64,000 nt of DNA. Source: Fibrobacteria bacterium. Lineage in GTDB: Bacteria; Fibrobacterota; Fibrobacteria; UBA11236. The position numbers were made by a program, and so were the translations under genes. The notes under the pieces were generated by a model. That model did not search any database and was not told the DNA's origin. It saw only the letters and a program-made list of their open reading frames with translations. This document shows, piece by piece, positions 4,328-22,006 of the stretch; within the stretch, counting starts at the first letter, position 1; every line of letters begins with the position of its first letter. The stretch covers positions 8,287-72,286 of the forward strand of contig JBJHDK010000003.1 in assembly GCA_050486505.1 (NCBI GenBank), written 5' to 3'.

Positions 4328-4625
4328 GCGCCGTGAAGGTAGGAAAAGGGGCTGCTGCATTGGATGCCATAGCCCTTTTCATGGAGTTTGCGGCGGGCTG
4401 ATGTCTTCGTTTCGCCGGACTGCGGACGCGCCATGCGGCGTCGGCCTCAGTCGCGGTACTCCCGGTACCGCTCCTTCGGTCCTCCTGGCCTGACACGTCC
4501 TCGTTCCGGCGCCCCTGTTCGGCAGAGAAGTTGTCTTCATGACCGTCGCGAGCGTCGCCCTGTTTTGCCTTGTCGTCCGTCCCGCATCTGTGCCTGCTTG
4601 CCCTTACAGGTCTACCTTTGGGCCC

Positions 4626-6976: not shown

Positions 6977-6998
6977 AGTGACGAGTTACGAGTGAAGA
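6977..6998. repeat. Solo partial copy of the ACGAGTT-type heptamer repeat (shares TGACGAGTTACGA with the element at 10748)
   Basis: A 13-mer identical to the left arm of the 10748..10900 element. Lies between the convergent purU and ABC ATPase genes. Confidence 0.3.
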
Positions 6999-7879: not shown

Positions 7880-8855
7880 TCGTTCCCCCCTGATACAAAT
7901 GGCACGCCACATGATGCCCGGTGTGCGCCTCCGTCCATGCAGGGTCGGTCGTGCAAGGGTCGAAGACGCGCGGGCAGCGGTCGTGGAAGCGACACCCCGC
8001 GGGATAGCGCCCCGGCGGGGGGACGGATCCGGGAATGGGGCGGGGGATGGCGCCGGTTTCGAGGTTGGGCAGCGCGTCGAGCAGGCCGCGCGCGTACGGA
8101 TGCAGCGGATCCCGCAACAGGTCGAGCGCGGGCCCCGATTCGACGACGCGGCCGGCGTACATCACCGCCGCACGATCTGCGTACTGGGCGACGAGGTTGA
8201 GGTTGTGCGTGATCAGCACGATGCCGGTGCCGGTCTCGCGGCGGAGTTCCGCCAGCAGGTCGAGGATTTGCGCCTGAATGGTCACGTCGAGCGCGGTGGT
8301 CGGCTCGTCGGCGAGGATGAGCTTCGGCTTGAGCAACAGGGCGTGCGCGATGAGCACACGCTGCAGCATGCCGCCCGAGAGCTCGTGGGGGTAGGAGCGC
8401 AGCACGCGGTCGGGGTCGCGGAAGCCCACGCGGTCGAGCAGCTCGCGGATGCGCGTCGCGGGGTCTCCCGCGTGTTTATGGTGCCGGAAGGGGAAGCGCA
8501 GCTGCGTGCGAATGGTCTGCAGGGGGTTCATCGCGGCCGACGGCTCCTGGAAGATCATGGCGATGTCGGCTCCGCGTGTCGCGCGCATCTCGTCGGGCGG
8601 GAGCCGCAGCAGGTCGCGCCCGCGATAGAGCGCGCGGCCCGAGAGCACGACCGTGGAGTTCGCGGGCAGAAGCCGCAGCAGGCCGAGGCAGGTGACGGTT
8701 TTGCCGCATCCCGACTCGCCGACGAGCCCGAAGATCTCGCCTTCCCTGACGTCGAAGGACACGCCGTCGGTCACGGGTGTCACGCGCCCTTCGTCCCGGA
8801 AACCGAGCGAGAGGTTCTCAACACGCAGCAGGGGTTCGTTCGACGCGGCGGGCAT
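7872..8855 (-). CDS. Peptide/nickel ABC transporter ATP-binding protein (DppD/OppD-like)
   Basis: Walker A GESGCGKT, signature LSGGMLQR, and the C-terminal HPYARGLL oligopeptide domain. Confidence 0.8.
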   Translation of the reverse strand: MPAASNEPLLRVENLSLGFRDEGRVTPVTDGVSFDVREGEIFGLVGESGCGKTVTCLGLLRLLPANSTVVLSGRALYRGRDLLRLPPDEMRATRGADIAMIFQEPSAAMNPLQTIRTQLRFPFRHHKHAGDPATRIRELLDRVGFRDPDRVLRSYPHELSGGMLQRVLIAHALLLKPKLILADEPTTALDVTIQAQILDLLAELRRETGTGIVLITHNLNLVAQYADRAAVMYAGRVVESGPALDLLRDPLHPYARGLLDALPNLETGAIPRPIPGSVPPPGRYPAGCRFHDRCPRVFDPCTTDPAWTEAHTGHHVACHLYQGGTSG

Positions 8856-8865
8856 TGTGACCTCG

Positions 8866-8910
8866 AAGGTAGTAAGGGCGACCTGCAGGTCGCCCGTACA
8901 GGGCTACCTT
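8866..8910. repeat. REP-like palindrome copy 2 (GTAAGGGCGACC-TGCA-GGTCGCCCGTAC nested inside AAGGTAG...CTACCTT)
   Basis: Near-perfect 28-nt palindrome with an extended outer inverted repeat. Sits in the divergent promoter region between the ABC ATPase and the IMPase genes. Confidence 0.55.
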
Positions 8911-8916
8911 TACATC

Positions 8917-9759
8917 ATGCCCGCCGCGCCGGTGAACATCTTCCTCGAAACCGCGATCGACGCCGTGCGTGCCGCGGGTGCGGTGGCGCTGCGTCGCCGG
9001 GCCGCGTTGGGTCCCGCACGCTTCAAGGGCGAAAAGGACCTCGTCACCGACGCCGACATCGAATGCGACGGGCTCATCCGCGCGAAGATCCTCGAGCGCT
9101 TCCCCGGCCACGACCTGCTCACCGAAGAAGAAGGCGCGCTCGACCAAGGCAGCGCCTGGCGCTGGCTCGTCGACCCGATCGACGGTACCATCAACTATTC
9201 CCGGGGAATCCCGCTGTGGGGAGTTTCCGTCGGTCTTGCGCACGAGGGGCGCATGCTGTGCGGCGCGATATACCTCCCCGTGTTCGACGAACTCTTCACC
9301 GCCGTCGCGGGCGGCGGAGCCACCCTGAACGGAGAGCCGATCCGGGTGGCCCCCCGGTCCGACCTCTCCACCGCCATCGTGTCGCACGGTGATTTCAACG
9401 TCGGCGCCGACGACAACGCGCGCCGCGACCTCAACGCCGCCAACTTCTGGGGCCGCATGCGCACCGTCTCCGGCGTGCAGCGCGTGAAGTGCCTCGGTTC
9501 CGCAGTGGTCGAGGGCGCTTACGTCGCCTGCGGCCGCATGGACGGCTATTGGATGGGGTATCTCAAGCCCTGGGACGTCGCCGTCACCAGCCTGCTCGTC
9601 ACCGAGGCGGGCGGCCGTGTCACCGACCTTGCCGGCAAGCCGTGGACGCTCGAGTCGCGCACGATCTTGTTCTCCAACGGAACGCTGCACGACGCCTTGC
9701 TCGAAGCGCTGTCGTGGGATCGCAGGAAGTTTCCGGAAACATCGGAAGGGAAGGCATGA
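8917..9759 (+). CDS. suhB: Inositol monophosphatase family protein
   Basis: IMPase motifs DPIDGT and WDVA. ATG at 8917. Confidence 0.8.
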   Translation: MPAAPVNIFLETAIDAVRAAGAVALRRRAALGPARFKGEKDLVTDADIECDGLIRAKILERFPGHDLLTEEEGALDQGSAWRWLVDPIDGTINYSRGIPLWGVSVGLAHEGRMLCGAIYLPVFDELFTAVAGGGATLNGEPIRVAPRSDLSTAIVSHGDFNVGADDNARRDLNAANFWGRMRTVSGVQRVKCLGSAVVEGAYVACGRMDGYWMGYLKPWDVAVTSLLVTEAGGRVTDLAGKPWTLESRTILFSNGTLHDALLEALSWDRRKFPETSEGKA

Positions 9760-10742
9760 TGGGGGCCACCTCCGCAGACGCGGCGTCGTTCGGGTACGTC
9801 GACATCTCGCCCGCCCTGCGCGAGGTGCTCGCGCGCGGCGGCACGCGGGACGCCCCGCTTTCCCTCGCGGGGTCGGCCGGGTCGGGCAGGGCGTACTACC
9901 GCGTGCACGGCACGGGCCTCGTGCTGCTGGTCTCCCCGGACGAGGACGCCGACTTCGGCCGCTTTCTGCGCATCACCCAGTTCTACCGCATGCTGCGCGT
10001 GCCCGTGCCGCGTGTCCACGCCGTGGACGACGCCGCGCGCCAGGTGTTGCTCGAGGACCTGGGAGAACGCCGGCTCTATGACGTCCTCAAGTCCGACCGG
10101 GCCGCGGGCCTCGGGGCCTACCAAAAGGCGCTCGCGATCCTGGCCGACTTGCAGGGGCGCTGCGACCCCTTCCGCGACGAATGTCCCGACATCAAGTCGC
10201 GCGTATTCGACACGTCGCAGTTGCTGTGGGAAACAGGGTATTATCGCGCCCACTATCTTGAAGCTTACCGCGGCTTGCGTCCCGCGCCCGCGATGCAGGA
10301 GGCCTTCGACCGGCTCGCGGCCCGCGTCGATACGCACCCCAAGGTCATCATGCACCGCGACTTCCAGTCGCAAAACCTGATGGTGAAGCCCGATGAATCG
10401 GTGCACGTCATCGATTATCAGGGAAGCCGGCTCGGTTCGATGTTCTACGACGCGGCCTCGCTGTTGCTCGATCCCTACGTGATGCTTGCGGATGATGAAA
10501 TCGAGGGACTTCTGCGCGGCTTTCACGCCGCACGCGGCGGGGGCACGGGGTTTTCGGCGTTCCGCACCGCCTTCCTCGAAGCGGGCCTGCAGCGTGTCAT
10601 GCAGGCGCTCGGCGCGTATTGTTTCCTGTCGCGGGTCAAGGGGCTCGCGGCCTTCGCGGACCACATCCCGGCAGGGGAGGAAAGGCTGCGGTGGCTTGTC
10701 CGGGAAACAGGCGGTGACTGGAAGGCCTTGCTGCCGGATTAA
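9756..10742 (+). CDS. Phosphotransferase (APH/choline-kinase fold), possibly an anomeric sugar kinase
   Basis: Catalytic motif HRDFQSQNLMV and IDYQGS. The ATGATG start overlaps the suhB stop. Confidence 0.7.
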   Translation: MMGATSADAASFGYVDISPALREVLARGGTRDAPLSLAGSAGSGRAYYRVHGTGLVLLVSPDEDADFGRFLRITQFYRMLRVPVPRVHAVDDAARQVLLEDLGERRLYDVLKSDRAAGLGAYQKALAILADLQGRCDPFRDECPDIKSRVFDTSQLLWETGYYRAHYLEAYRGLRPAPAMQEAFDRLAARVDTHPKVIMHRDFQSQNLMVKPDESVHVIDYQGSRLGSMFYDAASLLLDPYVMLADDEIEGLLRGFHAARGGGTGFSAFRTAFLEAGLQRVMQALGAYCFLSRVKGLAAFADHIPAGEERLRWLVRETGGDWKALLPD

Positions 10743-10747
10743 GCCAA

Positions 10748-10900
10748 TGACGAGTTACGAAATACGAATTACGAATTACGAGTTACGAATGACACGAAGG
10801 GCGTTCGAATCTTGGAACCGATGTTCCTGTCCGCCTTATGTCCTGGCGTTTTGATTCGTTCCTTGTTTTCCGTAATTCGTAACTCGTAATTCGTAATTTT
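10748..10900. repeat. MITE-like inverted-repeat element. Arms of 30-45 bp are built from tandem heptamers ACGA(G/A)TT, separated by an AT-rich spacer of about 76 bp
   Basis: Left arm tgacgagttacgaaatacgaattacgaattacgagttacgaatgac. Right arm cgtaattcgtaactcgtaattcgtaatt is its reverse complement. Intergenic, between the kinase and dUTPase genes. Confidence 0.55.
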
Positions 10901-10929
10901 CGCCCCACTCACTTTTCCCCGGATTCCCC

Positions 10930-11388
10930 ATGCCGAACCAAGACAAACTCGACCGCCTTTTTGCACTTCAGTCCGAACTCAATGACCGCATCTTCGCCAA
11001 GAAGGACATCCGCGATGCGGAGGGCAAGGTGCTGACCATGGAAACCCTGATCGCCGAGGCGCGCGCGGGGAGTCCCCTCGGCCCGAACACCAAGGTGAAC
11101 GAATGGCTGGGGAAATACCTGACGGCCCTCGATGACGAGTCGCGCGAGTTGCGCGAAGAGCTGCTGTGGAAGTGGTGGTCGAAGGATCACCTCGACATGC
11201 AGAACATCCGGGTCGAGATCATCGACCAGTTGCATTTCTGGATGTCGATGGCCCTCACCGCCGGGCTCGGGCCCGACGAGGTGTTCGACATCTACATGCA
11301 GAAGAACGCCGTCAATCACGCGCGCCAGGAGAACGACTACGCGCGCGGGAACAAGACCGAGGGCGACAACAAGACGATCCGGACGTGA
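10930..11388 (+). CDS. Dimeric all-alpha dUTP pyrophosphatase (dUTPase_2/MazG-like fold)
   Basis: Pattern LFALQSELNDRI...KWWSKDH...EIIDQLHFWMSMAL resembles dimeric dUTPases. Recognition is from memory, not a search. Confidence 0.55.
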   Translation: MPNQDKLDRLFALQSELNDRIFAKKDIRDAEGKVLTMETLIAEARAGSPLGPNTKVNEWLGKYLTALDDESRELREELLWKWWSKDHLDMQNIRVEIIDQLHFWMSMALTAGLGPDEVFDIYMQKNAVNHARQENDYARGNKTEGDNKTIRT

Positions 11389-11418
11389 CGCTTCGCGTCC
11401 GTCGGCATCAAGGCGCCG

Positions 11419-12456
11419 CTACTCCAGGCAACCCTGTCCGCGCCGGATGTCGTTTACCCGGATTTCCCCGTCCTTGAAGCGGGCACGCATGCGCGTCTCC
11501 GAAGCTCCATCGTGGATGCATGCCGCAGGCAGCGCGACCGGACGGTAGAGGGGGGTCTCGTTGGGAAAGACTTCGTCGTCGGGGCGCACGTATTCGCCCA
11601 GCAGGATTTTGGGAGCGTCATTGACCCCCACCATTTCGACACGGATGAGCATCCCGGGAAGATCAGGGCAGACGTTGCTCACGATTTGCGCGAGACTGTA
11701 TTCATCCTCCACGTGACCGTTGACCTCGAAGGCGAAGGCGGTGCTCGTGAGACTGTCCAGAAGGCATGTGGCCCATGTGGAATCGGCATCGCCCAAGAGG
11801 CCGATGCGTCCTTCTTCCAGCAGGGCGGAGTCTTCCCCGGAGACTTGCACGAAGCGAAGGCCGCGGGGGTGTGCGCGAAAGCGGATTTCCGGCTCCAGGT
11901 GGGCGGCTTCCGGAGGCATCAGACCAAGATCGTACGTTCCGTCGGGAAGGATGGGAGCGAACCTGCTCGTGCCCCGGAGGAAGACGGTGCCCTCGTCGGG
12001 CAGGTATCCCGATTTAAGGCGGACCGATCCATTGAAAGACTCCGGCGCGCGCGCCAGAAAACGGGCCGTGTCGCGCTCAGTCGCCTTGAAGGCACGGACC
12101 GTGTCGAGAATGACCATGATGCCGAGCAGCCTTCCTTCGGCCATGTAAACTCCCGGTTGCCGGACAGTGAAGGACGTAAAGCCATGGGCGTCGGTTCGTG
12201 GGGCGGTGACAGCGGGCGAGGCTCCGGAGTCGGGGCGCGATTGCGCGTGGCGCAGCTCGAGTTCGACTCCCGCCACGGGGACTCCGGAGCTGTCCACCAC
12301 GCGGGCACGCATGTGGACGGGTTGGAGCCCGTTTTCGGTGTCGGTTCCCGTCCCCCCCATGCATGCTGAAAAACCGGACAACACGAGGAGAAACCCGGCA
12401 GCGAGTCGGACCAGTCCCCTGACAGGGAGATGCCGGCGGAGGATACCCCCGCTCAT
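11419..12456 (-). CDS. Lipoprotein, hypothetical (signal peptide plus a LSGFSAC lipobox-like cysteine)
   Basis: N-terminal hydrophobic segment ending in Cys. Overlaps the upstream TIGR02147 gene by 4 nt. Confidence 0.6.
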   Translation of the reverse strand: MSGGILRRHLPVRGLVRLAAGFLLVLSGFSACMGGTGTDTENGLQPVHMRARVVDSSGVPVAGVELELRHAQSRPDSGASPAVTAPRTDAHGFTSFTVRQPGVYMAEGRLLGIMVILDTVRAFKATERDTARFLARAPESFNGSVRLKSGYLPDEGTVFLRGTSRFAPILPDGTYDLGLMPPEAAHLEPEIRFRAHPRGLRFVQVSGEDSALLEEGRIGLLGDADSTWATCLLDSLTSTAFAFEVNGHVEDEYSLAQIVSNVCPDLPGMLIRVEMVGVNDAPKILLGEYVRPDDEVFPNETPLYRPVALPAACIHDGASETRMRARFKDGEIRVNDIRRGQGCLE

Positions 12457-13313
12457 TGCCGTTTCCTCCTTCCGCGTTTGCGCGGGCCTGTCGTCAAGGG
12501 AAAAAGCTGCATGTTCAAGTGGTAGACGCGCTCGGGCGATGGATCCGCCTTGACATGCTCGAGGATTTCACGACGCAGGGCGCGCACTTTTTCCACGATG
12601 ACGGAGTACACCTCCGGCGAAATGCTGACGGTCGTTCCGCTGAAGTAACGCTCATGCTTGCGGAACCGGTCGAGAGCCTCCACGGCGAGCTTCGCCATGG
12701 ACTGATGGAAGCGGGGGAGCAGCAGCGACTCCATGCTAGGGTCGGTTTTGAGCAACGCCGTCGCCGCGCGCAAACCGCCGTCGGCGTCGCGCGTGAGCAG
12801 GTCGAGGGCGTCGAGTAGTTCCACCGCTTTCTTGACACGCTTTGGCTGGATCGGGGGGACGAGCTGCTTCGCAAAATCCGAGGGGTTGTCACGGTAGGGG
12901 AGGAAGGCCAGCATTTCCCGGATCGCGACGTTGTACCAGTCCTGATAGTACTCGTACTGGTGACGCTCCAGGGTCGCGACCGAAGGCGGACACTTGAGTT
13001 CCATGACGAGGGCGAACTGCTTGTCCTTCTCCGCAAGGGTCGCCGCCTGGTTGAAGCGCACGAGAGCCTCGAAAAAAGCCGATTCCGGCGGGGCGAGCTC
13101 GAGTGCCCGCAGAAACTTCGGAATGCTCCCGTCGGTCAGGTCGTTGTGGCCTTCCATGACACGTTTGAGGTAGGTGGGGCCGGACATTCCCGCTTTTTTA
13201 AGGAAGGAGCGGTGCGAAAAGCCGCGTTTGTGGCTTTTTGACCACGCATAGAAATCACGCAGAAAGGCGCGATAATCGGTATACTCAAAAACTGACGGCG
13301 CTGGAGGGTGCAT
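12453..13313 (-). CDS. TIGR02147/DUF4423 family protein (Fibrobacter-type paralogous family, putative HTH regulator), copy 1
   Basis: N-terminus FEYTDYRAFLRDFYAWSK...GFSHRSFLKKAGMSGPTYLKRVMEG matches the family hallmark (YxDYRxFL...FSxRxFxxKAG). Confidence 0.7.
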   Translation of the reverse strand: MHPPAPSVFEYTDYRAFLRDFYAWSKSHKRGFSHRSFLKKAGMSGPTYLKRVMEGHNDLTDGSIPKFLRALELAPPESAFFEALVRFNQAATLAEKDKQFALVMELKCPPSVATLERHQYEYYQDWYNVAIREMLAFLPYRDNPSDFAKQLVPPIQPKRVKKAVELLDALDLLTRDADGGLRAATALLKTDPSMESLLLPRFHQSMAKLAVEALDRFRKHERYFSGTTVSISPEVYSVIVEKVRALRREILEHVKADPSPERVYHLNMQLFPLTTGPRKRGRRKRQ

Positions 13314-13446
13314 GCGGGCCCGATCGGCTGAAAAACAAATTTACGCGGGAACATAGGGTTCTCGTGTAGTCTTAAAATACCCCCATGATCGTCTTCGCGC
13401 CCGCCGAAACACGACTGAATGCGGAAGTGGCTATCTTGCGCGTACC

Positions 13447-14925
13447 ATGCATTTTCGTGCTTTTTTGTTGTTTTTGCTCACCCTTCTTGCGACAGGTGCA
13501 TTTGCCGCTCTCCCGGACGAAGAGGAAGGCGGTTCCGTTGCGCCGCGGGCGGTGGTGATTCCCGTCGAGCGGGAAGTGGATTACGGGCTTTACGCTTTTC
13601 TCAAACGCGCGGTTTCCGAGGCTCTGGAGATGGAGCCGGATTACATCGTCTTCAAGGTCAACACCTGGGGCGGTGAACTGAATTCGGCCTTCGAGATCAC
13701 CGATCTGATCTTGTCGATCCGCCAGTGCAGCACCTACGTCTTCGTTGATCAGAAGGCGATTTCGGCGGGAGCTTTGATTTCACTGGCCTGCAACCGCATG
13801 GCCATGGGCGAGGGCACCACGATCGGGGATTGCGCGCCGATCATGCGTTCTTCCGAGGGGGGGATCGTCGTTCTCGGGGAAAAGATCCAGTCGCCGTTAC
13901 GCGCGAAGTTCAGGAATCTCGCCGAGCGGAACGGCTATCCCAGTTTGCTGAGCGAGTCGATGGTGACGATGGACATCGGGGTGGTGGGGGCCTACTTCGC
14001 CGACACGACGAAGGCCCCGGATTATTTCACCGTCGCGGAGTGGAACGCCCTGTCCGATGAACGGAAAGCGAAGTATGCGAGCCACCGTACGATCGTGCGC
14101 GAGGGAGAGCTTCTCACCCTCACGGACCGGGAGGCGCTGGAGCACGGGTTTTCGCAGGGGTCCTTCGTTGATTTCGAGGCATTCCTCGAGCACAAGGGGT
14201 GGGACGTCGTCAAGACCTTCTCCCCGACATGGTCGGAGAGCATGGTCCGGGTGCTGGGCAAGTTTACGCCCATCCTGATGCTGCTGGGGTTTGGGGCGCT
14301 GTACATGGAATTCAAGTCGCCGGGGTTCGGGCTGTTCGGCACGTTGGGGATCCTCCTGCTCGGGGTGGCCTTCGGGGCAAAGTACGCCGTGGGGCTGGCC
14401 GCGCATACCGAACTCCTCCTGCTCATCGGGGGGTTCGTCCTCTTCGCCATCGAGATTTTCGTCGTACCAGGCACGTTCATCGCCGGTGCGATCGGCATCA
14501 TTCTCATCATTGTCGCGTTGACGTTGTCGATGCAGGGGTTTGTGATTCCGAACCCCGACCTGCCCTGGGAGTTCAACACGCTGGTGGACAACCTTGCCCT
14601 CACTTTCGGCATGGCGGCGCTGGCGCTTTTCCTTCCCCTGCTGGCGATCCGGTACGCGCTTCCGAAGCTTCCGAAACGCGCCGCCGTTGTTGCGGACGTT
14701 ACTTTGGGCGATGCCCGCAGCGCCGCGTTCGACACACCGCCGCTGGCCGTCGGCGCCGTCGGCGAGACGCGCACCGGCTTGCGCCCCGCGGGCAAGGCCG
14801 TGTTCGACGGCACCACATTCGAGGTGGTTTCGCGCGGCGAGTTCGTGGAGCCCGGAAAAACGGTCGAGGTGGTGCGTGTGCACGGACGGAACGTGGTCGT
14901 CCGTGCCCTGGAGAACAAGCCATGA
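13447..14925 (+). CDS. NfeD-family membrane-bound ClpP-class serine protease (long form)
   Basis: Signal peptide, ClpP-like domain, multiple TM helices, and a C-terminal OB-fold (GKAVFDGTTFEVVSRGEFVEPGKTVEVVRV). Confidence 0.85.
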   Translation: MHFRAFLLFLLTLLATGAFAALPDEEEGGSVAPRAVVIPVEREVDYGLYAFLKRAVSEALEMEPDYIVFKVNTWGGELNSAFEITDLILSIRQCSTYVFVDQKAISAGALISLACNRMAMGEGTTIGDCAPIMRSSEGGIVVLGEKIQSPLRAKFRNLAERNGYPSLLSESMVTMDIGVVGAYFADTTKAPDYFTVAEWNALSDERKAKYASHRTIVREGELLTLTDREALEHGFSQGSFVDFEAFLEHKGWDVVKTFSPTWSESMVRVLGKFTPILMLLGFGALYMEFKSPGFGLFGTLGILLLGVAFGAKYAVGLAAHTELLLLIGGFVLFAIEIFVVPGTFIAGAIGIILIIVALTLSMQGFVIPNPDLPWEFNTLVDNLALTFGMAALALFLPLLAIRYALPKLPKRAAVVADVTLGDARSAAFDTPPLAVGAVGETRTGLRPAGKAVFDGTTFEVVSRGEFVEPGKTVEVVRVHGRNVVVRALENKP

Positions 14926-15395
14926 TGAGCTACGCGTGGCCGATCGTGCTGCAACTGCTGGCCTTCGCCGTGGTGTTCGCGGAGGTCCTGATCCCCTCGT
15001 TCGGCCTGTTGGCGCTTATCGCGTTCGCCTTGGGGGCCTGGTCCTGGTACTACATCGTGACGGAACTTCCCCAGGGTGCGATCATCGGGTTCGCCATCGC
15101 CGACATGATCCTGATCCCGGTCGTCATCCGCTACGGTTTCGCTTACCTCGGCAAGTCGCCGGTGTCCCATCAGGCGCGGCTCGAGATCGGCTCCGGACTG
15201 GAAGAAAAAAGCGTCGCCCTGTCGCGCCTTGTGGGATCCACCGGCGTGACGGAGAGTTTCCTTCGCCCTTCGGGCAAGGTCCGGATCGAAGGGGATCTTT
15301 ACGAGGCGCAAACCACGGGAGATTTCGTGGAGAAAGGCGCCGAGGTGCGCGTCGTCGCCGTGCGCGGAAGCGGCTTCATCGTCGAGCGGGCTTGA
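14922..15395 (+). CDS. NfeD short-form membrane protein (two TM helices plus an OB-fold)
   Basis: ATGA overlap with the upstream NfeD gene. C-terminal motif [30 protein letters not shown]. Confidence 0.7.
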
Positions 15396-15423
15396 ACGGA
15401 TTCATTCAAAGGAGAACAAACAC

Positions 15424-16422
15424 ATGGACATCAGTTTCATTCTAGTCATCGTCGCCATCCTCGTCATCGTGGTGATGGCGATCATTCTCTTGAACTTCTT
15501 CAGCCTGTGGTTCCAGGCGCTCATGTCGAAGGCCAATGTCTCGCTGGTCCAACTCATCGGAATGCGCTTCCGGAAAGTGCCGGCCAAGAACGTGGTGGAA
15601 GCCAAGATCATGGGCCTCAAGGCAGGCCTTGAGCTCGGCACGGAGGAACTCGAGGCGCACTACATGGCCGGTGGTCACGTCATGCGCGTCGTGCAGGCCC
15701 TGATCGCCGCCGACAAGGCGAACATTCCCCTGAACTTCAAGCGTGCCGCAGCCATCGACCTGGCGGGCCGCAATGTGCTCGAGGCCGTGCAGATGTCGGT
15801 GAATCCCAAGGTCATCGAGACCCCCGTGGTTGCGGCCATGGCGACCGACGGCATTCAGCTCAAGGCCGTCGCGCGCGTGACCGTGCGGGCGAACCTCGAC
15901 AAGTTGGTCGGCGGTGCGGGTGAAGAGACGATTCTCGCGCGCGTCGGCGAGGGGATCGTGTCGACCATCGGTTCAGCCAAAAACCACAAGTCGGTGCTGG
16001 AGAACCCCGACCAGATTTCGAAGACAGTACTCAGCAAGGGCCTTGATTCCGGGACCGCCTACGACATCCTTTCGATCGACATCGCGGACGTGGACGTCGG
16101 CAAGAACATCGGAGCCGAGCTCGAGACCGATCGCGCCGAGGCCGACAAGAAGATCGCCCAGGCGAAGGCCGAGGAGCGTCGCGCGATGGCCATCGCCCAC
16201 GAGCAGGAGATGATCGCGCGCGTCGCCGAGATGCGCGCCAAGGTCGTCGAGATGGAGGCGCTCGTCCCCCAAGCGATCGCCGATGCCTTCCGCAACGGGA
16301 AGCTCGGGGTCATGGACTACTACAACATGAAGAACGTCATCGCCGACACCACCATGCGCGAGCAGATCGCCGGTGGAGAGGGTGGTTCTTCGGGCAAGGG
16401 CGGCGGCAACCCCAAGTCCTGA
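15424..16422 (+). CDS. floA: Flotillin-like protein FloA (UPF0365/YqfA family)
   Basis: N-terminal TM and an SPFH-like body with a conserved C-terminus ([27 protein letters not shown]). Classic NfeD-FloA synteny. Confidence 0.85.
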
Positions 16423-16457
16423 CCGGACGACGGCAGACGCAAGGCACGGGAACACGC

Positions 16458-17165
16458 ATGCGGTTCGAATACCTCATCCTTCTGATCATTCTCTTCAACA
16501 TCGTCACCGCGATGGCGCAGAAGCGTGCGCGGAAGGCGCGCGAGGAAGATGAGGCCCGTGCTGCCGCCGCGCAGGGCAGGGAACCTTTGCCTCCCGCCGA
16601 CGAGGACGCATTCGATGCCTGGGAGCAGGAGTGGGAGGATCCCGTCGAGGTTCCCGCCTCGTCGCGCGAGACGTCCCGGCGTGGACCCCCTGCCGATCGT
16701 TCGACCCGCTACGAACAGCGCGCTGAGGAACGTCGGCATGCGGTTTCCGACGAGTCGCGCCAGGTTCGCGACCCGGTGCGGAAGGTCGAGGAGATGAGTC
16801 GGCGGGTCGGGGAACCCGGTGAACACGCCTCGAAAGGCGGAGGTTTTCTGGAGAGGATCGCCAGGGATCTCGGCATCGAGATTCCCGGAGCCCGCGACGA
16901 AGAACGCCGGATGCGCCGCGAAGAGTTGCGTCGCCGCCCTCTGCGCGCACCGGAGCTCGGGAAATTCGAGCGCATCAAGGCCGCGCAACCCGTGAAGCCG
17001 GTCGCCGTCGAAACTTCGGAAGCGCGTGCGCGCCCCAAGCCGGTGAGAATCGATCTTTCGAGTCCTCAAAAACTGCGCGAGGCGGTTGTGGTGCGCGAGA
17101 TTCTCGACCCACCGGTGGCCAGGCGAGATCGTCGCCCGGGCCAGGGCCCCCAACTCAGGGGCTGA
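16458..17165 (+). CDS. Hypothetical membrane-anchored, highly charged, low-complexity protein
   Basis: N-terminal TM (LILLIILFNIVTA) followed by an E/R/D-rich region. Last gene of the flotillin operon. Confidence 0.45.
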   Translation: MRFEYLILLIILFNIVTAMAQKRARKAREEDEARAAAAQGREPLPPADEDAFDAWEQEWEDPVEVPASSRETSRRGPPADRSTRYEQRAEERRHAVSDESRQVRDPVRKVEEMSRRVGEPGEHASKGGGFLERIARDLGIEIPGARDEERRMRREELRRRPLRAPELGKFERIKAAQPVKPVAVETSEARARPKPVRIDLSSPQKLREAVVVREILDPPVARRDRRPGQGPQLRG

Positions 17166-18423
17166 CCACGAGGAACACCCCCGTCCTCGCCAATTCTTCT
17201 CCCGCAATCGTGCGCAGGCGAATCTGGCAGGTGGCCGGGAGATTTTGGCCGGGCGGCATCCACATGCGCTTGTTGATGCCGGGGCGCGAAGGATAGCCCG
17301 CGTCGAATATCGTCCAGGTCGCTCCGCCGTTGCGGGTGAATTCCAGAACCAGTGTTTCCTGCGTTCCTGCTTCCCAGGCGATTTCCGTCGGCTGGCCCGC
17401 GCGTAGCGTGTCGCTTTCCGTCGGCACGATGAATGCCGGGAGTTCGATGGCCCCGTGCACGCCGATCGTCACCGTGTCCGAGGATCGGTGCGGTCCCATT
17501 GCCGCGGAGAGCGCGAAGCGGTAAAGGCCCGGCCTTGGAAATTGCACGCGCGTTCCGAGGGAGGTGGGGTTCTCGATGTGGGCCCGTGTGCCTTGGGGGA
17601 TCGGCGGCACCTGCCGCCATAGCAGGGCGAGCCTCGGATCCTGGAGGGATGCGCCCGATACGGTCCCCGCAAGAAAGGTCGGGGAACCGATCCACACCGT
17701 GCGGTCGGGCCCGGCCTGCACGACCGGCGGCACGGGCGGCGCGGGCGGATGCGGCCTGGGCACGGGCGGAGCATCGGGGTCGACCTGGTGGCGTCGCGGT
17801 TGTCCGGGAGTGATGGGCTCGGGCAAGGGCAGTTCGATGCCTTCGGACGTCAGCACGTGCGCCGGAAACTCGCCCTCGGGAATGGCCTCGAACACGAAGG
17901 TGCTGTCCACCATCACGGCCTGGAAGGGTGAACCGGGAACGAAGATCCGGTTGATCCCGGAATCATTGGGGAGATCGAGCTCCGCTTCGTAGCGCACGAG
18001 CCGCGAAACCGTGATGGATGCGGCCGGCTCGCCCGGGATCCCGTCGCGCGCGTAGCGTCCGGCGGCGGGGTCGTAGGAGAGTCGAAGCAACAACCCTCCG
18101 GTGGAGTCGTCGGCGACCAGCAGCACGTTGAAGGGAACGTGGCCGACGATGTCGTGCGCGGAGAGAATGATCCCGGTTCCATCCTCGACCCGCTTGCTGA
18201 CGATGGCCGAAGGGTTCAACGCGGGGTTCTGGTCGGATGCGTAGACGGCGAGGGATCCCGAGACGCGCGCGGCGACGCCCTCCCCATCGACGAAGGTGAT
18301 CTGCAACGGGTTGTCGACCTCGGAACTGCCGCCCGCGAGATGCCCGTCGCTGTTGCATCCCGAAAGTGCGAGCAGGGGAACCACCCACAGCGCCGCGCGC
18401 AGGTGACGTCCGAACGAGGTCAT
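17155..18423 (-). CDS. Lipoprotein, hypothetical (LSGC lipobox), Pro-rich central linker
   Basis: Signal peptide plus LALSGC. The 4-nt overlap with the upstream TIGR02147 gene implies co-transcription. Confidence 0.6.
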   Translation of the reverse strand: MTSFGRHLRAALWVVPLLALSGCNSDGHLAGGSSEVDNPLQITFVDGEGVAARVSGSLAVYASDQNPALNPSAIVSKRVEDGTGIILSAHDIVGHVPFNVLLVADDSTGGLLLRLSYDPAAGRYARDGIPGEPAASITVSRLVRYEAELDLPNDSGINRIFVPGSPFQAVMVDSTFVFEAIPEGEFPAHVLTSEGIELPLPEPITPGQPRRHQVDPDAPPVPRPHPPAPPVPPVVQAGPDRTVWIGSPTFLAGTVSGASLQDPRLALLWRQVPPIPQGTRAHIENPTSLGTRVQFPRPGLYRFALSAAMGPHRSSDTVTIGVHGAIELPAFIVPTESDTLRAGQPTEIAWEAGTQETLVLEFTRNGGATWTIFDAGYPSRPGINKRMWMPPGQNLPATCQIRLRTIAGEELARTGVFLVVSP

Positions 18424-19400
18424 GGAGATTCCGCCTTGCCTTCACCCGCGTCGAGCTCCGGGAGGCGACTGTTGGGAAACAACTGGAGGGTCAGGCTGTA
18501 GATGCGATCCTCCCCGCTGTCGCGGTCGAGGATCTCGCGCAACTCCTCGAGGAAGGAGCGGACGCGTTCCTTCACGGTGGCGAAGCCGCCCGGAGAGACC
18601 GTGAACATGAGCGCATTGTACTGGCGCAGCGCGGGCGGGACCTTGTCAAGAAGCTCTTGCGACATGCGCGTCAGTTCCAGCATGTGTTCGCGCGCGGCCT
18701 TTGCCTGCACGTCCTTCGGGCTGGAAATATGCCTTTCGGTGACCATGTAGCCGTTGGCCGTCCGCTTGATCAGGTCGAGATCGAGAAGAAGGCGGATGGC
18801 TTCGGCGACCTGGGTTTCGCTGACGGACGGGAAAAGCTTCCGGGCAATCGTTTCCGGGTCGCGCACGCCGGTTTCCATGCTGAAAAAGTTGCGTACGGCG
18901 CTGTAATGCCATTTCGAAAAAAACTCGAACTGGGACTCTCCCAGCACCCGGGCGCGTGAAGCCCGGAACTTCGAGAGTTGGTCGAAGAAATGATTCTTTT
19001 CTGCCATGCCCTTGGCTTGGTTGAATTGCACCAGCAGGTCGAAGTATTGCGCCTCCCGTTCCGGCAGGGCGAGTGCCGATGCGAATTTTACCCGCAAGGT
19101 CTGGCTGAGGTTGCGTCGCCCGCGAATGACCGCGGGCAGCAGGCTCGAGCTGGAGGGGGGGAGGCCGGCTTCCCGCGCGAAGGTTCGTTGCGAAAAGCCG
19201 GGGTCGTGGCTCCGTCGCCATGCGCAATGGTCCGCAAGGAATGCCCTGTAATCGAGATATTGCAGGGCCTCGGGGCGCTTGTCCGCGCGCGCGGACGTGT
19301 CGGAAACGGATCGGGGCATACCCCGGAGTATACTCTCAGGCGGGGGGATGCGGCTGTTGTTCCGTGATCCCGGCTGGGGACAAATCGTCCCGGATCGCAT
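18420..19400 (-). CDS. TIGR02147/DUF4423 family protein, copy 2 (start possibly internal, near MPRSVSD)
   Basis: LQYLDYRAFLADHCAWRR...GFSQRTFAREAGL matches the same family hallmark as copy 1. Confidence 0.7.
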   Translation of the reverse strand: MRSGTICPQPGSRNNSRIPPPESILRGMPRSVSDTSARADKRPEALQYLDYRAFLADHCAWRRSHDPGFSQRTFAREAGLPPSSSSLLPAVIRGRRNLSQTLRVKFASALALPEREAQYFDLLVQFNQAKGMAEKNHFFDQLSKFRASRARVLGESQFEFFSKWHYSAVRNFFSMETGVRDPETIARKLFPSVSETQVAEAIRLLLDLDLIKRTANGYMVTERHISSPKDVQAKAAREHMLELTRMSQELLDKVPPALRQYNALMFTVSPGGFATVKERVRSFLEELREILDRDSGEDRIYSLTLQLFPNSRLPELDAGEGKAESP

Positions 19401-19482
19401 GCGAAAAACAGTGGCGCGTCATGGTCGAGCCGGGATAGATTGCCGACGTGTGCCGGTCATGTGCACATCACAGGAGGATCTC

Positions 19483-20391
19483 ATGATTGATGTGAGAATG
19501 AAAACAGGCTTGTTGTTCCCTGCCTTTGCCCTGTTGGTGCTGGCGGGGTGCCAAACCGTTCCCGACCAGGGGGTTGCCGCGGTCTCGGAAGACCCCGCGA
19601 CGGCCGACGCCGGGTTTCGTGTCGCCGTGAAGAACACGGAGGATTGCATCGCGTTGAGGGCCGCGATCAGGGCGGGCGAAGCGGACGCCGAAGCCCGTGC
19701 GGCTTTCGTCGCGGAATGTCTCGAGGAATTGCCTCCCGGAACACCCGTTCCCCCCGGCCTGCATCCCACGCCCGAACTCCGTTGCGAATGGGCGGCCGCT
19801 GAAATCGAGGCGGGCAGAACAGGCTTGATCCCGGGATTCGTGCGTCATTGTGCCGCGACATGCGCGCATTTGGCCCAAACCGACACGGAGGCGCATGAGC
19901 GCTTGTGCGTTCTCCCCCCGCGCCCGCCGCTTCCCGAGCCTCGCCAGGCGCGTTGCGACTCCCTGACTGCGGAGCTCGAGGTGGCTGATACCGCCTCTCC
20001 GGGGTACCATGAACTTGCCAGGCATCGCGCGGCGGTGTGCGGCTTGCCGCCGCCTCCCCGCCCGAATCCCCCGCAATTGCCTCCGGCGCGGCAGGCGCGT
20101 TGCGACTCGCTGCAGACGGTGCTCGCGGGTCTCGACACGAATTCCGCTGATTACCAGCACTTCCTGCGACATGTCGCGGCCGTTTGCGCGTTGCCGCCTC
20201 CGCCCCGCCCGGAGCGTCCGGTGCCTCCCCCACCGCCTCCGGCGCCACCGCATGTCTGCGCGCGCCAGGCCGAGATGCTTGGAACCCTGACCCCGGGTAC
20301 ACCGGAATACGACAGGAAGCGCGCCCACCATGAGTTGGTTTGCCCGCAGCCGGTCGACCCGCCTGGAGACGATCCCGCAGAAGAACAATAA
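19483..20391 (+). CDS. Lipoprotein with three tandem Cys-pair/polyproline repeats of about 45 aa
   Basis: LAGC lipobox. Repeat unit is ARCDSL...YxxxxRHxAAVC-LPPPPRP. Ends with PQPVDPPGDDPAEEQ. Confidence 0.6.
   Translation: MIDVRMKTGLLFPAFALLVLAGCQTVPDQGVAAVSEDPATADAGFRVAVKNTEDCIALRAAIRAGEADAEARAAFVAECLEELPPGTPVPPGLHPTPELRCEWAAAEIEAGRTGLIPGFVRHCAATCAHLAQTDTEAHERLCVLPPRPPLPEPRQARCDSLTAELEVADTASPGYHELARHRAAVCGLPPPPRPNPPQLPPARQARCDSLQTVLAGLDTNSADYQHFLRHVAAVCALPPPPRPERPVPPPPPPAPPHVCARQAEMLGTLTPGTPEYDRKRAHHELVCPQPVDPPGDDPAEEQ
19840..20353 (+). repeat. In-frame tandem coding repeats of about 135 bp (three copies) inside the lipoprotein gene
   Basis: CAGGCGCGTTGCGACTC(C/G)CTG... recurs with a period of about 135 nt. 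Confidence 0.5.
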
Positions 20392-20436
20392 GGGGGAGAG
20401 GGGGAGTGCGGCTGGGGGCAGCCGTATGACCCGGGG

Positions 20437-20471
20437 CCCGGCGTTCCCGCGAACGCCGGGCTTTCTTTTTT
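20437..20471 (+). terminator. Rho-independent terminator (CCCGGCGTTC-ccgc-GAACGCCGGG followed by CTTTCTTTTTT)
   Basis: Hairpin plus T-tract between convergent genes. Confidence 0.55.
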
Positions 20472-20494
20472 CCTGCCCGGGGCCCCTGCGGGGG

Positions 20495-22006
20495 CTACTC
20501 CTGGCTTCCGGAGACGGTTTCGGGGCGCACGATGTTGGAGGTGCCCCCTTCGACGATGCTTTGTTCCGAAACCATCGTGAGCACGGCGTTTTCCGTAAAA
20601 TCCCGGAGATTCAGCGAGCCGAGATTGCACATGGTGGCACGCAGCTTCGACAACGTGACGCTGAGGGCTTCAGACACGGTCCCCACCACCGGGACATAAC
20701 CGTCGACCCCCTCTTCGAACTTGAGCTTGCTTTCGCCCTCATCGGAGTAGCGTTGCCAGTTGCGGGCGCGATTCGAACCCTCGCCCCAGTAGGGCTTGTA
20801 GATGCGGTTTCCAATGGAAACCTTCGGGGTCGGGCTCTCTGCGGTCATCGCGAAGTAGCGTCCCATCATCACGAAGTCCGCGCCCATGGCAAGGGCAAGA
20901 ATGATTTGCGTGTCGTTGGAGAGGCCCCCATCGGAGCAAACCGGCACGTAGCGCCCGGTTCTCGCATGGAGTTCGTCCCGGGCGCGCACGACGTCCATGA
21001 GGGCGGAGGCCTGACCGCGTCCGATCCCCTTCTGTTCGCGCGTGATGCAAATCGAGCCCCCCCCGATCCCCACCTTGATGAAATCGAGCTTGCCCTCTTC
21101 CACGAGGTAATGGAAGCCCTCGGCGGAGACAACATTGCCGCCTCCCACCACGACGGAGTCGCCGTACTTCTCCCTGATCCACAGCGCGGCGTCCTTTTGG
21201 AACTCGGAGTACCCGTCTGAAGAATCGAAGGCGAGAACGTCCGCGCCCGCCTCGACGAGTGCCGGGACGCGTTCGCGGTAGTCGTGGGTGTTGATTCCCG
21301 CCCCCACGCCAAGGCGCTTGTGAGCGTCCAGCACCTCGTCGGGGTTATTCATGTGGTCGACGTAGTCCTTCTTGAAGACCAGGGAGTTGAGCCTGCCGTC
21401 TTCCTCGAGAACGGGGAGGCATTCCTTTTTGTGGCGATGGAGGAGCCTGTTGGCCTCCGCGAGCGTGATGCCGACGCGGCCGTGCACCACTTTTTCCAGC
21501 GGAGTCATGTGTTCGGAGACCTTGCTCTCGAGGTCGTCTTCGAACTCCCAGAAATCCTTGTCGGTGATGATGCCCAGGAACTTGCCCGCGTTGGTGCCGT
21601 CGTCGGTGACCGCGGCCGTGGAGTGTCCGGTGCGCTTTTGCACGGCGAGCAGTTGGCGCAATGTCGATTCGGGGTGCACGGTGGTGTCGCTGCGAACGAA
21701 CCCGGCCTTGTGCGCCTTGACCTTGGCGATCATCGCGGCCTGGTTTTCGATGGACTGGGAGCAGTACACGAATGCCAGCCCGCCCTGCCGGGCCAAGGCG
21801 ATGGCCATTTCCGCGCCGGAAACAGCCTGCATGCTTGCCGACACGACGGGCGCGTTCAGCGAGAAACGGCTCTTTTCTCCGTTGCGGAAGGCCGCGACGG
21901 GTGTGGTCAGGGAAACGTTACGAGGGAGGTGCTCCTTGCGGCTCAAGCCCGGAAGGAGGAGGTATTCGGCGAAAGTACGGGAGACGTCAGGAAGGATTCT
22001 GGCCAT
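20495..22006 (-). CDS. guaB: IMP dehydrogenase family protein with CBS pair
   Basis: Catalytic-loop signature GIGGGSICITRE with a CBS pair inserted. Start taken at MARILPDV. Confidence 0.85.
   Translation of the reverse strand: MARILPDVSRTFAEYLLLPGLSRKEHLPRNVSLTTPVAAFRNGEKSRFSLNAPVVSASMQAVSGAEMAIALARQGGLAFVYCSQSIENQAAMIAKVKAHKAGFVRSDTTVHPESTLRQLLAVQKRTGHSTAAVTDDGTNAGKFLGIITDKDFWEFEDDLESKVSEHMTPLEKVVHGRVGITLAEANRLLHRHKKECLPVLEEDGRLNSLVFKKDYVDHMNNPDEVLDAHKRLGVGAGINTHDYRERVPALVEAGADVLAFDSSDGYSEFQKDAALWIREKYGDSVVVGGGNVVSAEGFHYLVEEGKLDFIKVGIGGGSICITREQKGIGRGQASALMDVVRARDELHARTGRYVPVCSDGGLSNDTQIILALAMGADFVMMGRYFAMTAESPTPKVSIGNRIYKPYWGEGSNRARNWQRYSDEGESKLKFEEGVDGYVPVVGTVSEALSVTLSKLRATMCNLGSLNLRDFTENAVLTMVSEQSIVEGGTSNIVRPETVSGSQE

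Follow-up and report, generated by a model that had tools for sequence, protein, structure and literature searches.

The controller (C) proteins that type II restriction-modification (R-M) systems encode are Xre-type dimers whose genes lie upstream of, and overlap, the gene that they control; they act at palindromic upstream sites, their mRNA is leaderless, and they combine autogenous activation with autogenous repression (PMC2632904; PMC2175313). Their C-boxes, at a distance of 17-18 nt from the ATG, overlap a promoter with no clear -10 element (PMC2632904). Here we describe two gene pairs, or cassettes, that resemble these circuits in some respects and are found in a 64,000-nt stretch of DNA (hereafter, the window) from a Fibrobacteria bacterium (assembly GCA_050486505.1, contig JBJHDK010000003.1, positions 8,287 to 72,286 of the forward strand). 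In each cassette, a gene encoding a protein of the TIGR02147/DUF4423 family (R1 or R2; R in general) is followed directly by a gene encoding a lipoprotein (L1 or L2; L in general). We surveyed this arrangement across the family and found that a lipoprotein partner, mostly marked by a short common motif, accompanies nearly every member that we sampled.

Two other kinds of described system are also relevant. RRNPP pairs and the enterococcal pheromones that come from lipoprotein signal peptides likewise combine an Xre-type helix-turn-helix (HTH) regulator of ~280 aa with an adjacent exported product that carries a conserved short N-terminal sequence. The surface lipoproteins of Bacteroidota generally carry a lipoprotein export signal (LES), K-(D/E)2 or S-D-D-D-D, within positions +2 to +6 (PMC5080379).

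When the cassettes are compared with the C-protein systems C.PvuII, C.AhdI, C.Esp1396I and C.BclI, the predicted Xre-type domain of R, the position of its gene upstream of and overlapping the next one, and the candidate palindromes upstream are all similar; the leaderless mRNA and the autoregulation proposed below would be further points in common. On the other hand, the solved chains of C.BclI and C.Esp1396I have 77 and 79 residues and form a single domain, whereas R is more than three times as large and has an additional predicted winged helix and a tail. The downstream gene encodes an exported lipoprotein and not a nuclease, and we found no endonuclease or methyltransferase gene of an R-M system in the cassette neighbourhoods. 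The spacing differs as well: the edge of the palindrome lies ~52-66 nt from the ATG (its centre ~60-80 nt) as against 17-18 nt for the C-boxes. In addition, the cassettes show a TATAAT-like box at -12/-13, and C systems have no clear -10. We regard the C-protein circuit as the closest working analogue of the cassettes, the likeness being one of mode of working and not of family membership. Within their own family, the R1 and R2 proteins are themselves no different from other members; the family definition includes no downstream lipoprotein partner, no motif after the lipobox cysteine and no upstream palindromes, and these are what we add here.

The two cassettes of the window

The four open reading frames (ORFs) of R1, L1, R2 and L2 were present on the minus strand at the coordinates proposed in an earlier reading made from the DNA letters only (the sequence-only reading), although one start codon probably has to be moved (Table 1). 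Judged by their profile matches, R1 and R2 are full-length, ordinary members of TIGR02147/DUF4423. On the NCBIfam TIGR02147 hidden Markov model (HMM; cutoff 50), they scored 258.1 and 223.8 bits over positions 3-271 and 4-271 of the 272 in the profile, and on Pfam DUF4423 (PF14394; gathering threshold 30) they scored 106.3 bits (residues 114-273) and 113 bits (residues 148-309), respectively. Both contain the hallmark segments YxDYRxFL, LVxFNQA and QLFP, so the family hallmark that the sequence-only reading had recognised in the two proteins was borne out by scores above the cutoff. The two share 31% identity over 275 aa in a BLAST-type pairwise comparison (E 8e-38), in agreement with their earlier description as paralogs, and no further TIGR02147 copy was found in the 64-kb window.

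The longest ORF of R2 is open to 19400 and would encode 326 aa, which is the gene as the sequence-only reading delimited it, whereas the R2 orthologs are 300-313 aa long. Because a conserved palindrome, a -10-like TATACT and these ortholog lengths all conflict with a coding extension at 19320..19400, the true start is probably Met28, with its ATG at 19319. The coordinates of R1 needed no such revision.

Both downstream products satisfied a lipobox rule of the PROSITE PS51257 type (Cys at 15-35, basic n-region, uncharged h-region), with an Arg within the first seven residues in each case. L1 and L2 are thus predicted bacterial lipoproteins, that is, substrates of signal peptidase II, as had been supposed, and the exact 4-nt overlap claimed for each gene pair is seen as ATGA at both junctions. 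The sequence-only reading had further suggested that L1 and L2 might be distant paralogs, on account of an Ig-like and a P/E-rich segment in each. We rejected this argument: BLASTP detected no similarity between the two (E 17), and the P/E-rich stretches are low-complexity linkers, which do not count as evidence of homology. At best, there is a weak co-linear profile match between residues 91-171 of L1 and 93-173 of L2 (hhalign probability of 28%). The real common feature of the two proteins is a nine-residue motif after the lipobox Cys, which is described below.

In the AlphaFold2 (AF2) model of L1 (mean predicted local distance difference test score, pLDDT, 72), beta-sandwiches at residues 47-122 and 130-206 are followed by an alpha/beta domain, and residues 1-42, which include the signal peptide, Cys32 and the motif, are disordered or of low confidence. 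Foldseek matched the sandwiches to CnaB/transthyretin-like domains of pilins and adhesins (SpaA, E 2e-5) and to a putative adhesin of Bacteroides (E 5e-4). The only Pfam match of L2 was to a K319L-like PKD domain and was below threshold (E 0.02). L2 has four database homologs at 42-44% identity, and the two that lie on contigs we examined (P0137 and P0139) follow a DUF4423 gene with a 4-nt overlap; 24 L2 orthologs were present among the loci fetched for the survey.

Pairing of TIGR02147 genes with lipoprotein genes

By profile search, the TIGR02147/DUF4423 family comprises 17,334 clusters at 50% identity (E ≤1e-3), or 11,764 clusters at E ≤1e-10. We drew two samples from it, whose loci carry three-digit numbers below. 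The genome sample consisted of 80 loci from GTDB species genomes that were chosen by the peptide LVxFNQAK, together with the window and look-up loci; represented in it are Fibrobacteria, Fibrobacter, Chitinispirillaceae and Bacteriovoracaceae, along with a number of metagenome-assembled genomes (MAGs) that are evidently mis-binned. The held-out sample consisted of 80 loci from JGI metagenomes that were chosen by a different peptide, YQ[LI]N[FIT]QLF. In both samples, R genes were called with an HMM built from 41 diverse members, and an ORF counted as a partner if it lies on the strand of R, encodes a signal peptide plus Cys and starts -45 to +200 nt from the R stop codon. Given that a strict PROSITE-style rule missed partners with atypical residues before the Cys (LFRC, LIQC, INC), a looser rule was used, and the same rule was applied to the controls.

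In the genome set, 89 of 91 evaluable R genes were directly followed by a partner with a signal peptide and Cys; the exceptions were L087, in which the partner is displaced by 565 bp, and L081, in which the signal peptide has no Cys. In the held-out set, an adjacent partner was found for 67 of 75 R genes, two more were followed by a signal peptide without Cys, and about six had none. Taken together, 156 of the 166 evaluable genes (~95%) have a same-strand lipoprotein-like partner, as compared with 161 of the 759 other ORFs (~21%) that meet the same loose rule in the same DNA (Fisher p ~1e-73; orthologs and shared ancestry inflate this value, and orthologs also inflate the counts). The effect itself is not open to doubt. 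When the R proteins were clustered at 50% identity by single linkage, 66 of 71 clusters had a partner. The exact -4 overlap was observed for 51 of 88 partners in the genome set and 48 of 67 in the held-out set (99 in all), and an overlap of any length for 71 and 59 partners, respectively. Pairing with a lipoprotein is the rule for the sampled TIGR02147 genes, and the systematic linkage raised in the sequence-only reading is found in two independent samples.

It might be argued that the adjacency seen in the window is a coincidence, since lipoprotein-like N-termini are common and occur in about a fifth of all ORFs under the loose rule. The survey refutes this and leaves it a negligible probability: the frequency of partners is far above that background, the junction is mostly a 4-nt overlap, the partners have a motif of their own, and the result was replicated in the held-out sample.

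Several further features of the cassettes were noted in the sampled loci. Cassettes tend to cluster, with two of them within a few kb in L024, L033, L034, L035, L064, L079 and L082; they are often arranged back to back and divergently, as in L033, where one R gene occupies 4130..4969 (minus strand) and the other 5950..6819 (plus strand). Individual MAGs account for four to five or more cassettes, although the sample is restricted by its search pattern. L087, with R at 5980..6825 and a motif-bearing lipoprotein at 7390..9027, is the only locus of the genome set with such a separation. No third gene, be it for a transporter, a protease or a sigma factor, recurs near the cassettes across paralog groups. 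Within one subgroup (L045, at 7457..8383, and L047, L052, L054 and L077), whose partners are short (~210 aa) and carry the motif GGGSDTETL, a conserved same-strand third gene directly follows the lipoprotein gene. Finally, contigs labelled 'uncultured Bifidobacterium', 'Senegalimassilia', 'Alistipes onderdonkii' and 'Oscillospiraceae' (L010, L012, L049, L074 and L084) carry cassettes of the Fibrobacter or Fibrobacteria type, two of them with R2 orthologs at 74-81% identity. The occurrence of cassettes under these labels most likely reflects mis-binned contigs.

A common motif after the lipobox cysteine

The partners are not homologous along their length. Their Pfam domains include DUF2341 with Laminin_G_3 (a ConA-like lectin domain), CBM_4_9, LRR, PKD and CarboxypepD_reg, many of the short partners (150-270 aa) have no Pfam match, and neither the N-terminus of the partners nor the short partners as such were covered by an NCBIfam or Pfam model. 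One short partner from Bacteriovoracaceae (L080, 6816..7271) gave a sub-threshold match to NCBIfam NF047485 (E 0.007, 16.5 bits), the Leptospira 'LA_2478/LA_2722/LA_4182 family', which hints that a paralogous family of Leptospira may be a partner family.

What the partners have in common is a nine-residue motif that starts 0-20 residues after the lipobox Cys, and whose consensus, obtained by expectation maximisation on the genome set, is G-[GT]-[SGT]-[ST]-[EGD]-[TVI]-[GED]-N-[PA]. Examples are GGSSEVDNP in L2 and its orthologs, GTGTDTENG in L1 and its orthologs, GTSSGVDNP, GIEIGNP in Fibrobacter, GGTTDTGNA in Chitinispirillaceae, C-GTETGNP in Bacteriovoracaceae and the motif of the ~210-aa partners given above. 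The sequence GGTGTDT.NG is invariant in 15 L1 orthologs, as are G31, N38 and P39 of the L2 motif in 17 L2 orthologs. We constructed a position-specific scoring matrix (PSSM) from the six C-terminal positions, using the genome set only, and applied a threshold of 9. Scores of at least 9 were obtained for 80 of the 88 training partners and 49 of the 67 held-out partners (73%), but for only 5 of the 161 control ORFs with a signal peptide and Cys (3%). Two of these five are true partners: L163, located behind an R gene cut by the locus edge (97 bits), and the displaced partner of L087. The motif is specific to TIGR02147 partners, and in the window it occurs only in L1 and L2.

Next, we considered at what level the motif is maintained. 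Synonymous sites within its codons vary freely, and Ser is encoded by both AGY and TCN; this indicates that selection acts on its protein sequence, and we rejected the possibility that it is a nucleic-acid element on the same grounds. The partners in L139 and L150, both of the held-out set, have a signal peptide without a lipobox Cys and nevertheless retain the motif, as GGVDVGN, right after the hydrophobic region. The motif thus appears to be tied to the cassette and not to lipidation. We favour the reading that it is a linear signal recognised by a shared envelope machinery for sorting, anchoring or processing.

If this is so, then the question arises whether the motif is simply a general surface-export signal of lipoproteins in these phyla, with R being an ordinary local regulator. 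The Fibrobacterota belong to the FCB group, and the Bacteroidota, which are part of the same group, achieve surface export by means of a short signal that immediately follows the +1 Cys (PMC5080379); the partner motif lies in a similar region. Like the LES, the partner motif is short and linear, lies just after the lipidated Cys, comes from a related group of phyla and is found on glycan-binding or adhesin-like lipoproteins. However, it is a 9-mer, GG[ST][ST][ED][TV][GED]N[PA], rich in Gly, Ser and Thr and ending in N-P, at a variable distance of 0-20 aa, and does not resemble K-(D/E)2 at +3 to +5; residues +2 to +6 are MGGTG in L1 and NSDGH in L2, so that neither has an LES. In addition, the motif is restricted to TIGR02147 partners, its rarity among other ORFs with a signal peptide and Cys having been established over 0.9 Mb, and the two other lipoproteins of the window listed in Table 1 have no motif. 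We accordingly give the idea of a general export signal only a very slim chance.

Predicted structure of the regulators

The AF2 model of R1, which was built from a 10-sequence alignment, has a mean pLDDT of 77. Residues 1-100 are helical, with pLDDT above 90; a winged helix (helix-helix-helix-strand-strand) is predicted at 125-185, with beta-strands at 173-183, and is followed by two long helices. Domain-level Foldseek matches included the winged helices of MarR, GntR and WYL regulators as well as Xre-type proteins, namely C.Esp1396I (probability 0.91 but E 0.58), GraA and a phage repressor. When the R family profile was compared with the sequences of the Protein Data Bank (PDB), the sole match was to the Xre-type protein C.BclI (E 0.5), over profile positions 27-83 and with the classic Xre pattern; a single-sequence search returned 3kxa (E 0.56). 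Pfam HTH models did not match R1 or R2, and no signal peptide or membrane segment was found in the R sequence. Of the probable HTH that the sequence-only reading had placed at the N-terminus, the fold is therefore supported by the confident model, while the support from sequence is weak. We consider DNA binding by R, as judged from sequence and model, to have good support but to be unproven.

Conservation across the family alignment is highest in RVYQLNxQLFPL(S/T), at the extreme C-terminus (residues 262-273 of R1). In the AF2 monomer this VYxLNxQLFPL segment is not placed (pLDDT below 50 at 260-272), and it may form a dimer interface or an interface with a partner.

These features bear on a further possibility, namely that the cassette is a signalling or feedback unit in which R senses its own partner. 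R might bind the N-terminal motif of the un-exported L precursor in cis at the coupled ribosome, which would amount to secretion-coupled autoregulation, or it might sense a re-imported peptide or lipopeptide processed from the N-terminus of L, as in RRNPP systems. Such a unit would account for a pairing that is near-obligatory and translationally coupled and for a motif that is partner-specific and kept even where the lipobox Cys has been lost; the motif also lies in a disordered tether, as expected of a linear recognition motif, and R has ~180 residues beyond the HTH, including the conserved C-terminal stretch VYQLNxQLFPLS. The resemblance to RRNPP pairs extends to the size of the regulator, its cytoplasmic location and its position next to the gene for an exported product. 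However, Pfam and AF2 reveal neither a TPR nor any other known peptide-binding domain in R, the AF2 model having a winged helix and two long helices but no solenoid, and L is a lipoprotein of full size and not a propeptide. As it hardly varies among the paralogs, the motif cannot by itself provide paralog-specific signalling, no oligopeptide permease, other transporter or processing protease gene recurs near the cassettes, and contact between R and L is purely hypothetical. We regard such sensing as unlikely, though as an alternative to be taken seriously.

Palindromes and -10-like boxes upstream of the regulators

We searched the 200 nt upstream of R for inverted repeats (7+7, at most one mismatch, spacer 3-7). 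Repeats centred at -60 to -80 from the R start were found in 30 of 86 loci of the genome set, as compared with 9.3 in shuffled sequences, and in 19 of 52 loci of the held-out set, as compared with 7.6; perfect 7+7 palindromes were found in 17 loci where ~2 were expected. The family form is YG-N4-C, ~5 nt, G-N4-CR, in which the outer bases are common and the inner four differ between paralog groups. The half-site pairs observed were TGTACAC/GTGTACA, TGGGGAC/GTCCCCA (the R2 group), TGCTCTC/GAGAGCA, CGCTCTC/GGGAGCG, GGCAACA/TGTTGCC, CGTTTAC/GTAAACG, CGTATTC/GAATACG and CGTTGAC/GTCAACG. Where groups have the same palindrome, their predicted recognition helix is mostly the same too: INSPSFLK occurs together with GTACAC, and INSAPFFKF together with CGTTTAC in both a Fibrobacteria and a Chitinispirillaceae locus.

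For R2, the core GGGAC-N5-GTCCC of the candidate operator is present as a single copy in the window, and a palindrome of the type TGGGGAC-N5-GTCCCCA occurs at the equivalent place in eight loci with R2 orthologs (L013, L022, L024, L028, L030, L031, L036 and L037). For R1, the 133 bp between this gene and the divergent nfeD contain a candidate site that fits YG-N4-C N5 G-N4-CR; we assign it only tentatively. In L087, whose partner gene is displaced, a palindrome of the type TGTACAC-N5-GTGTACA occurs three times, at 5485, 5907 and 6989. The copy at 6989, with one mismatch, lies in the gap between R and L, and another lies 420 bp further upstream of R, whereas the palindrome was unique in the other loci checked. 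L087 thus seems to be a natural case of uncoupling, in which L would have an operator copy of its own.

TATAAT-like hexamers start at exactly -12/-13 in 23 of 86 loci and at almost none of the neighbouring positions, and the peak at -13 recurs in the held-out set. With a box at this position, transcription would begin at the ATG or immediately beside it, which suggests that the R transcript is leaderless or nearly so.

Another explanation that we considered is that R is not a transcription factor but a cytoplasmic escort or chaperone, which keeps the L precursor competent for export or delivers it to the translocon, much as chaperones that bind signal peptides and have their genes beside those of their substrates. 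The one-to-one stoichiometric coupling through the ATGA overlap and the co-duplication of R and L as a unit would suit such a role. It does not readily explain, however, why R has two HTH-type domains, why palindromes specific to paralog groups stand at a fixed upstream position and mostly track the predicted recognition helix, or why the uncoupled L gene of L087 has a further copy of the palindrome upstream. We therefore consider an escort function to be very unlikely.

Genomic context and orthologous loci

The two cassettes of the window (G+C ~63%) are separated by an nfeD1b-nfeD-floA operon, which is context and not part of the module (Table 1). Its products were identified by Pfam as NfeD1b_N/NfeD_membrane/NfeD, a short NfeD and FloA (516 bits). 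Outside the two cassettes lie a dUTPase_2 gene and an inosine-5'-monophosphate dehydrogenase (IMPDH) gene. R1 orthologs with 50-82% identity come from Fibrobacteria MAGs. In L002, L004 and L005, the R1-L1 pair keeps its 4-nt overlap and stays between the dUTPase_2 gene and the divergent nfeD-nfeD-floA operon, and this synteny is stable down to 56% R1 identity. The R2-L2 pair lies on the other side of the flotillin operon in L002 and L005 but is absent from L004. The lipoproteins diverge much faster than the regulators, with L1 at 54% identity where R1 is at 82%, and at 32% where R1 is at 68%. The statement of the sequence-only reading that the modules flank the NfeD/FloA operon on both sides is consequently correct for the window, L002 and L005, whereas L004 has only one cassette and other family members lie in unrelated contexts; the arrangement is a lineage-specific synteny.

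We also examined whether the cassettes might be relics of mobile elements, either a prophage immunity module (a cI/Xre repressor with a superinfection-exclusion lipoprotein) or an anti-phage pair. The family has undergone large paralog expansions, and Xre-type repressors next to small lipoprotein genes do occur in temperate phages. However, two search patterns found no relatives in 2.9 million IMG/VR contigs, R1, R2, L1 and L2 had no PHROG or PADLOC match, and the neighbours are housekeeping genes (IMPDH, dUTPase, NfeD/FloA) in stable synteny. A phage or defence origin was set aside on the strength of the database results; it is largely refuted, and we give it hardly any probability.

Two other genes of this region deserve mention. 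Beginning 36 nt downstream of floA, an ORF that converges with L2 encodes an N-terminal hydrophobic helix followed by a highly charged, Arg/Glu-rich body with no Pfam match. It is probably the fourth gene of the nfeD-floA operon, because its homologs keep the same position in L002, L005, L007 and L010. Divergent from R2 is a third lipoprotein gene, whose product has no Pfam match and contains two copies of a ~45-aa Cys-containing module (...RQARCDSL...VCxLPPPPRP) with Pro-rich linkers between them; short divergent ORFs take its place in L002 (3106..3498) and L005 (8179..8742). No known RNA element was found in 10500..20600, and a generic promoter and terminator scan of the cassette region gave nothing above chance.

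Table 1. Features of the cassette region and other lipoprotein genes of the window (positions 1 to 64,000)
Feature	Coordinates	Strand	Description and basis
L1	11419..12456	-	345 aa; two predicted beta-sandwich domains, then a predicted alpha/beta domain at the C-terminus
L1 signal peptide and lipobox	12361..12456	-	aa 1-32; FLLVLSGFSAC, Cys32; PROSITE-type pattern
L1 post-Cys motif	12328..12354	-	GTGTDTENG; aa 35-43; regular-expression scan of the window, PSSM score 21.1
R1/L1 overlap	12453..12456	-	ATGA; R1 stop TGA within the L1 start ATG region; cggcaATGAgc, read directly
R1	12453..13313	-	TIGR02147/DUF4423 protein, 286 aa; predicted N-terminal Xre-type HTH, central winged helix, helical C-terminus
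Candidate R1 operator	13346..13364	-	CGAGAAC-CCTAT-GTTCCCG, a palindrome with 1 mismatch; its centre lies 42 nt upstream of the ATG; tentative
nfeD1b-nfeD-floA operon	13447..16422	+	between the cassettes, divergent from R1
ORF downstream of floA	16458..17165	+	probable fourth gene of the operon
L2	17155..18423	-	422 aa; Pro-rich linker near aa 200-240, then a weak PKD-like segment
L2 post-Cys motif	18307..18333	-	GGSSEVDNP; aa 31-39; PSSM score 24.6, the top score
L2 signal peptide and lipobox	18355..18423	-	aa 1-23; WVVPLLALSGC, Cys23; PROSITE-type pattern
R2/L2 overlap	18420..18423	-	ATGA; R2 stop / L2 start; ctccATGAcc, read directly
R2	18420..19319	-	TIGR02147/DUF4423 protein, 299 aa from the probable start Met28; ORF open to 19400
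R2 -10-like hexamer	19327..19332	-	TATACT; starts 13 nt before the Met28 ATG
Candidate R2 operator	19375..19393	-	CCGGGAC-GATTT-GTCCCCA; centred 65 nt upstream of the Met28 ATG
Third lipoprotein gene	19483..20391	+	302 aa; LVLAGC lipobox
Further lipoprotein gene	56861..58495		

Proposed mechanism and its weighing

On balance, and with moderate confidence, we propose that each cassette forms an autoregulated operon and that its Xre-HTH/winged-helix protein governs a variable envelope lipoprotein. The operon would be self-contained, with two genes that have gone through many rounds of duplication as a unit in Fibrobacterota as well as some Bdellovibrionota. R would be a cytoplasmic protein of ~280 aa, made up of an Xre-type helix-turn-helix, a winged helix (the DUF4423 region) and a helical tail, and would most likely act as a dimer that binds a palindrome of 17-19 bp, ~60-80 nt upstream of the R start codon. 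The -10 box of the operon promoter would end ~7 nt before the ATG and give a leaderless R message, from which L would be translated by coupling through the ATGA overlap. Given that the palindrome lies upstream of the would-be -35 element, activation is more likely than repression. In this manner R would determine how much of the cognate lipoprotein is made, and probably also whether its expression is on or off. L would be exported by the lipoprotein pathway and present a disordered N-terminal tether with the motif, followed by a variable ligand-binding or adhesin-like body. The sequence-only reading had spoken of an 'envelope-linked regulatory module'; this is a fair label, although the evidence points to an autoregulated operon and not to demonstrated signalling from the envelope to the cytoplasm.

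A number of points weigh against the proposed operon or narrow its basis. A plain relation of regulator and target explains neither the near-obligatory link to lipoproteins across lineages nor the motif that the partners have in common. The similarity of the HTH to solved Xre proteins, at E 0.5, is not significant alone, and no whole-protein structural match of R in the PDB was found by Foldseek at E <0.1. A clear palindrome at the expected place is seen in only about a third of the loci, and L077 and L045 have the same predicted recognition helix but different best palindromes. R1 itself is atypical, in that its site has one mismatch and a centre at -42, closer than in most loci, and its -10-like box, TAAATT, lies at -30; moreover, no conserved site was found in the R1-nfeD intergenic region, which is too diverged to align among four R1 orthologs. 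As for the data, the two samples were each picked by a conserved peptide and represent only part of a family of ~17,000 clusters at 50% identity, gene calls and start codons came from simple ORF logic, and the PSSM was trained on partners before being validated on the held-out set. Among the 8 million papers of the searchable full-text literature, we found no mention of TIGR02147, a single mention of DUF4423 as Bd3700 in a proteomics table, and no experiment on any member.

More speculatively, the TIGR02147-lipoprotein pair might be a secretion-linked genetic switch, in which the motif is read by a dedicated envelope machinery or by R on the un-exported precursor, and in which self-activating leaderless operons produce a combinatorial surface display. 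We think this improbable in its entirety. If it is true, however, each cell would commit itself to displaying a subset of dozens of variable binding lipoproteins, for adhesion to substrates or recognition of prey, in Fibrobacterota and Bdellovibrionota.

Significance for the family

We found no literature that describes the pairing of TIGR02147 genes with lipoprotein genes, and the pairing rule, the partner motif and the operator with its putative leaderless architecture appear to be new. They provide a first testable lead on the function of the very large TIGR02147/DUF4423 family, in the form of the hypothesis that every member has its own exported lipoprotein, with domains of the glycan-binding or adhesin type behind a common nine-residue tag, and that the operons have paralog-specific palindromes and probably leaderless transcripts. 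The pairing also offers a simple annotation rule for thousands of 'hypothetical lipoproteins', and the new linear motif could mark a sorting or processing route in the envelope. Fibrobacter is the main cellulose degrader of the rumen; the family is expanded to many copies per genome in this genus and is also present in the predatory Bacteriovoracaceae. These findings suggest that the surface repertoire of such bacteria may be controlled protein by protein through dedicated autoregulators, which would bear on the attachment of Fibrobacter to plant fibre.

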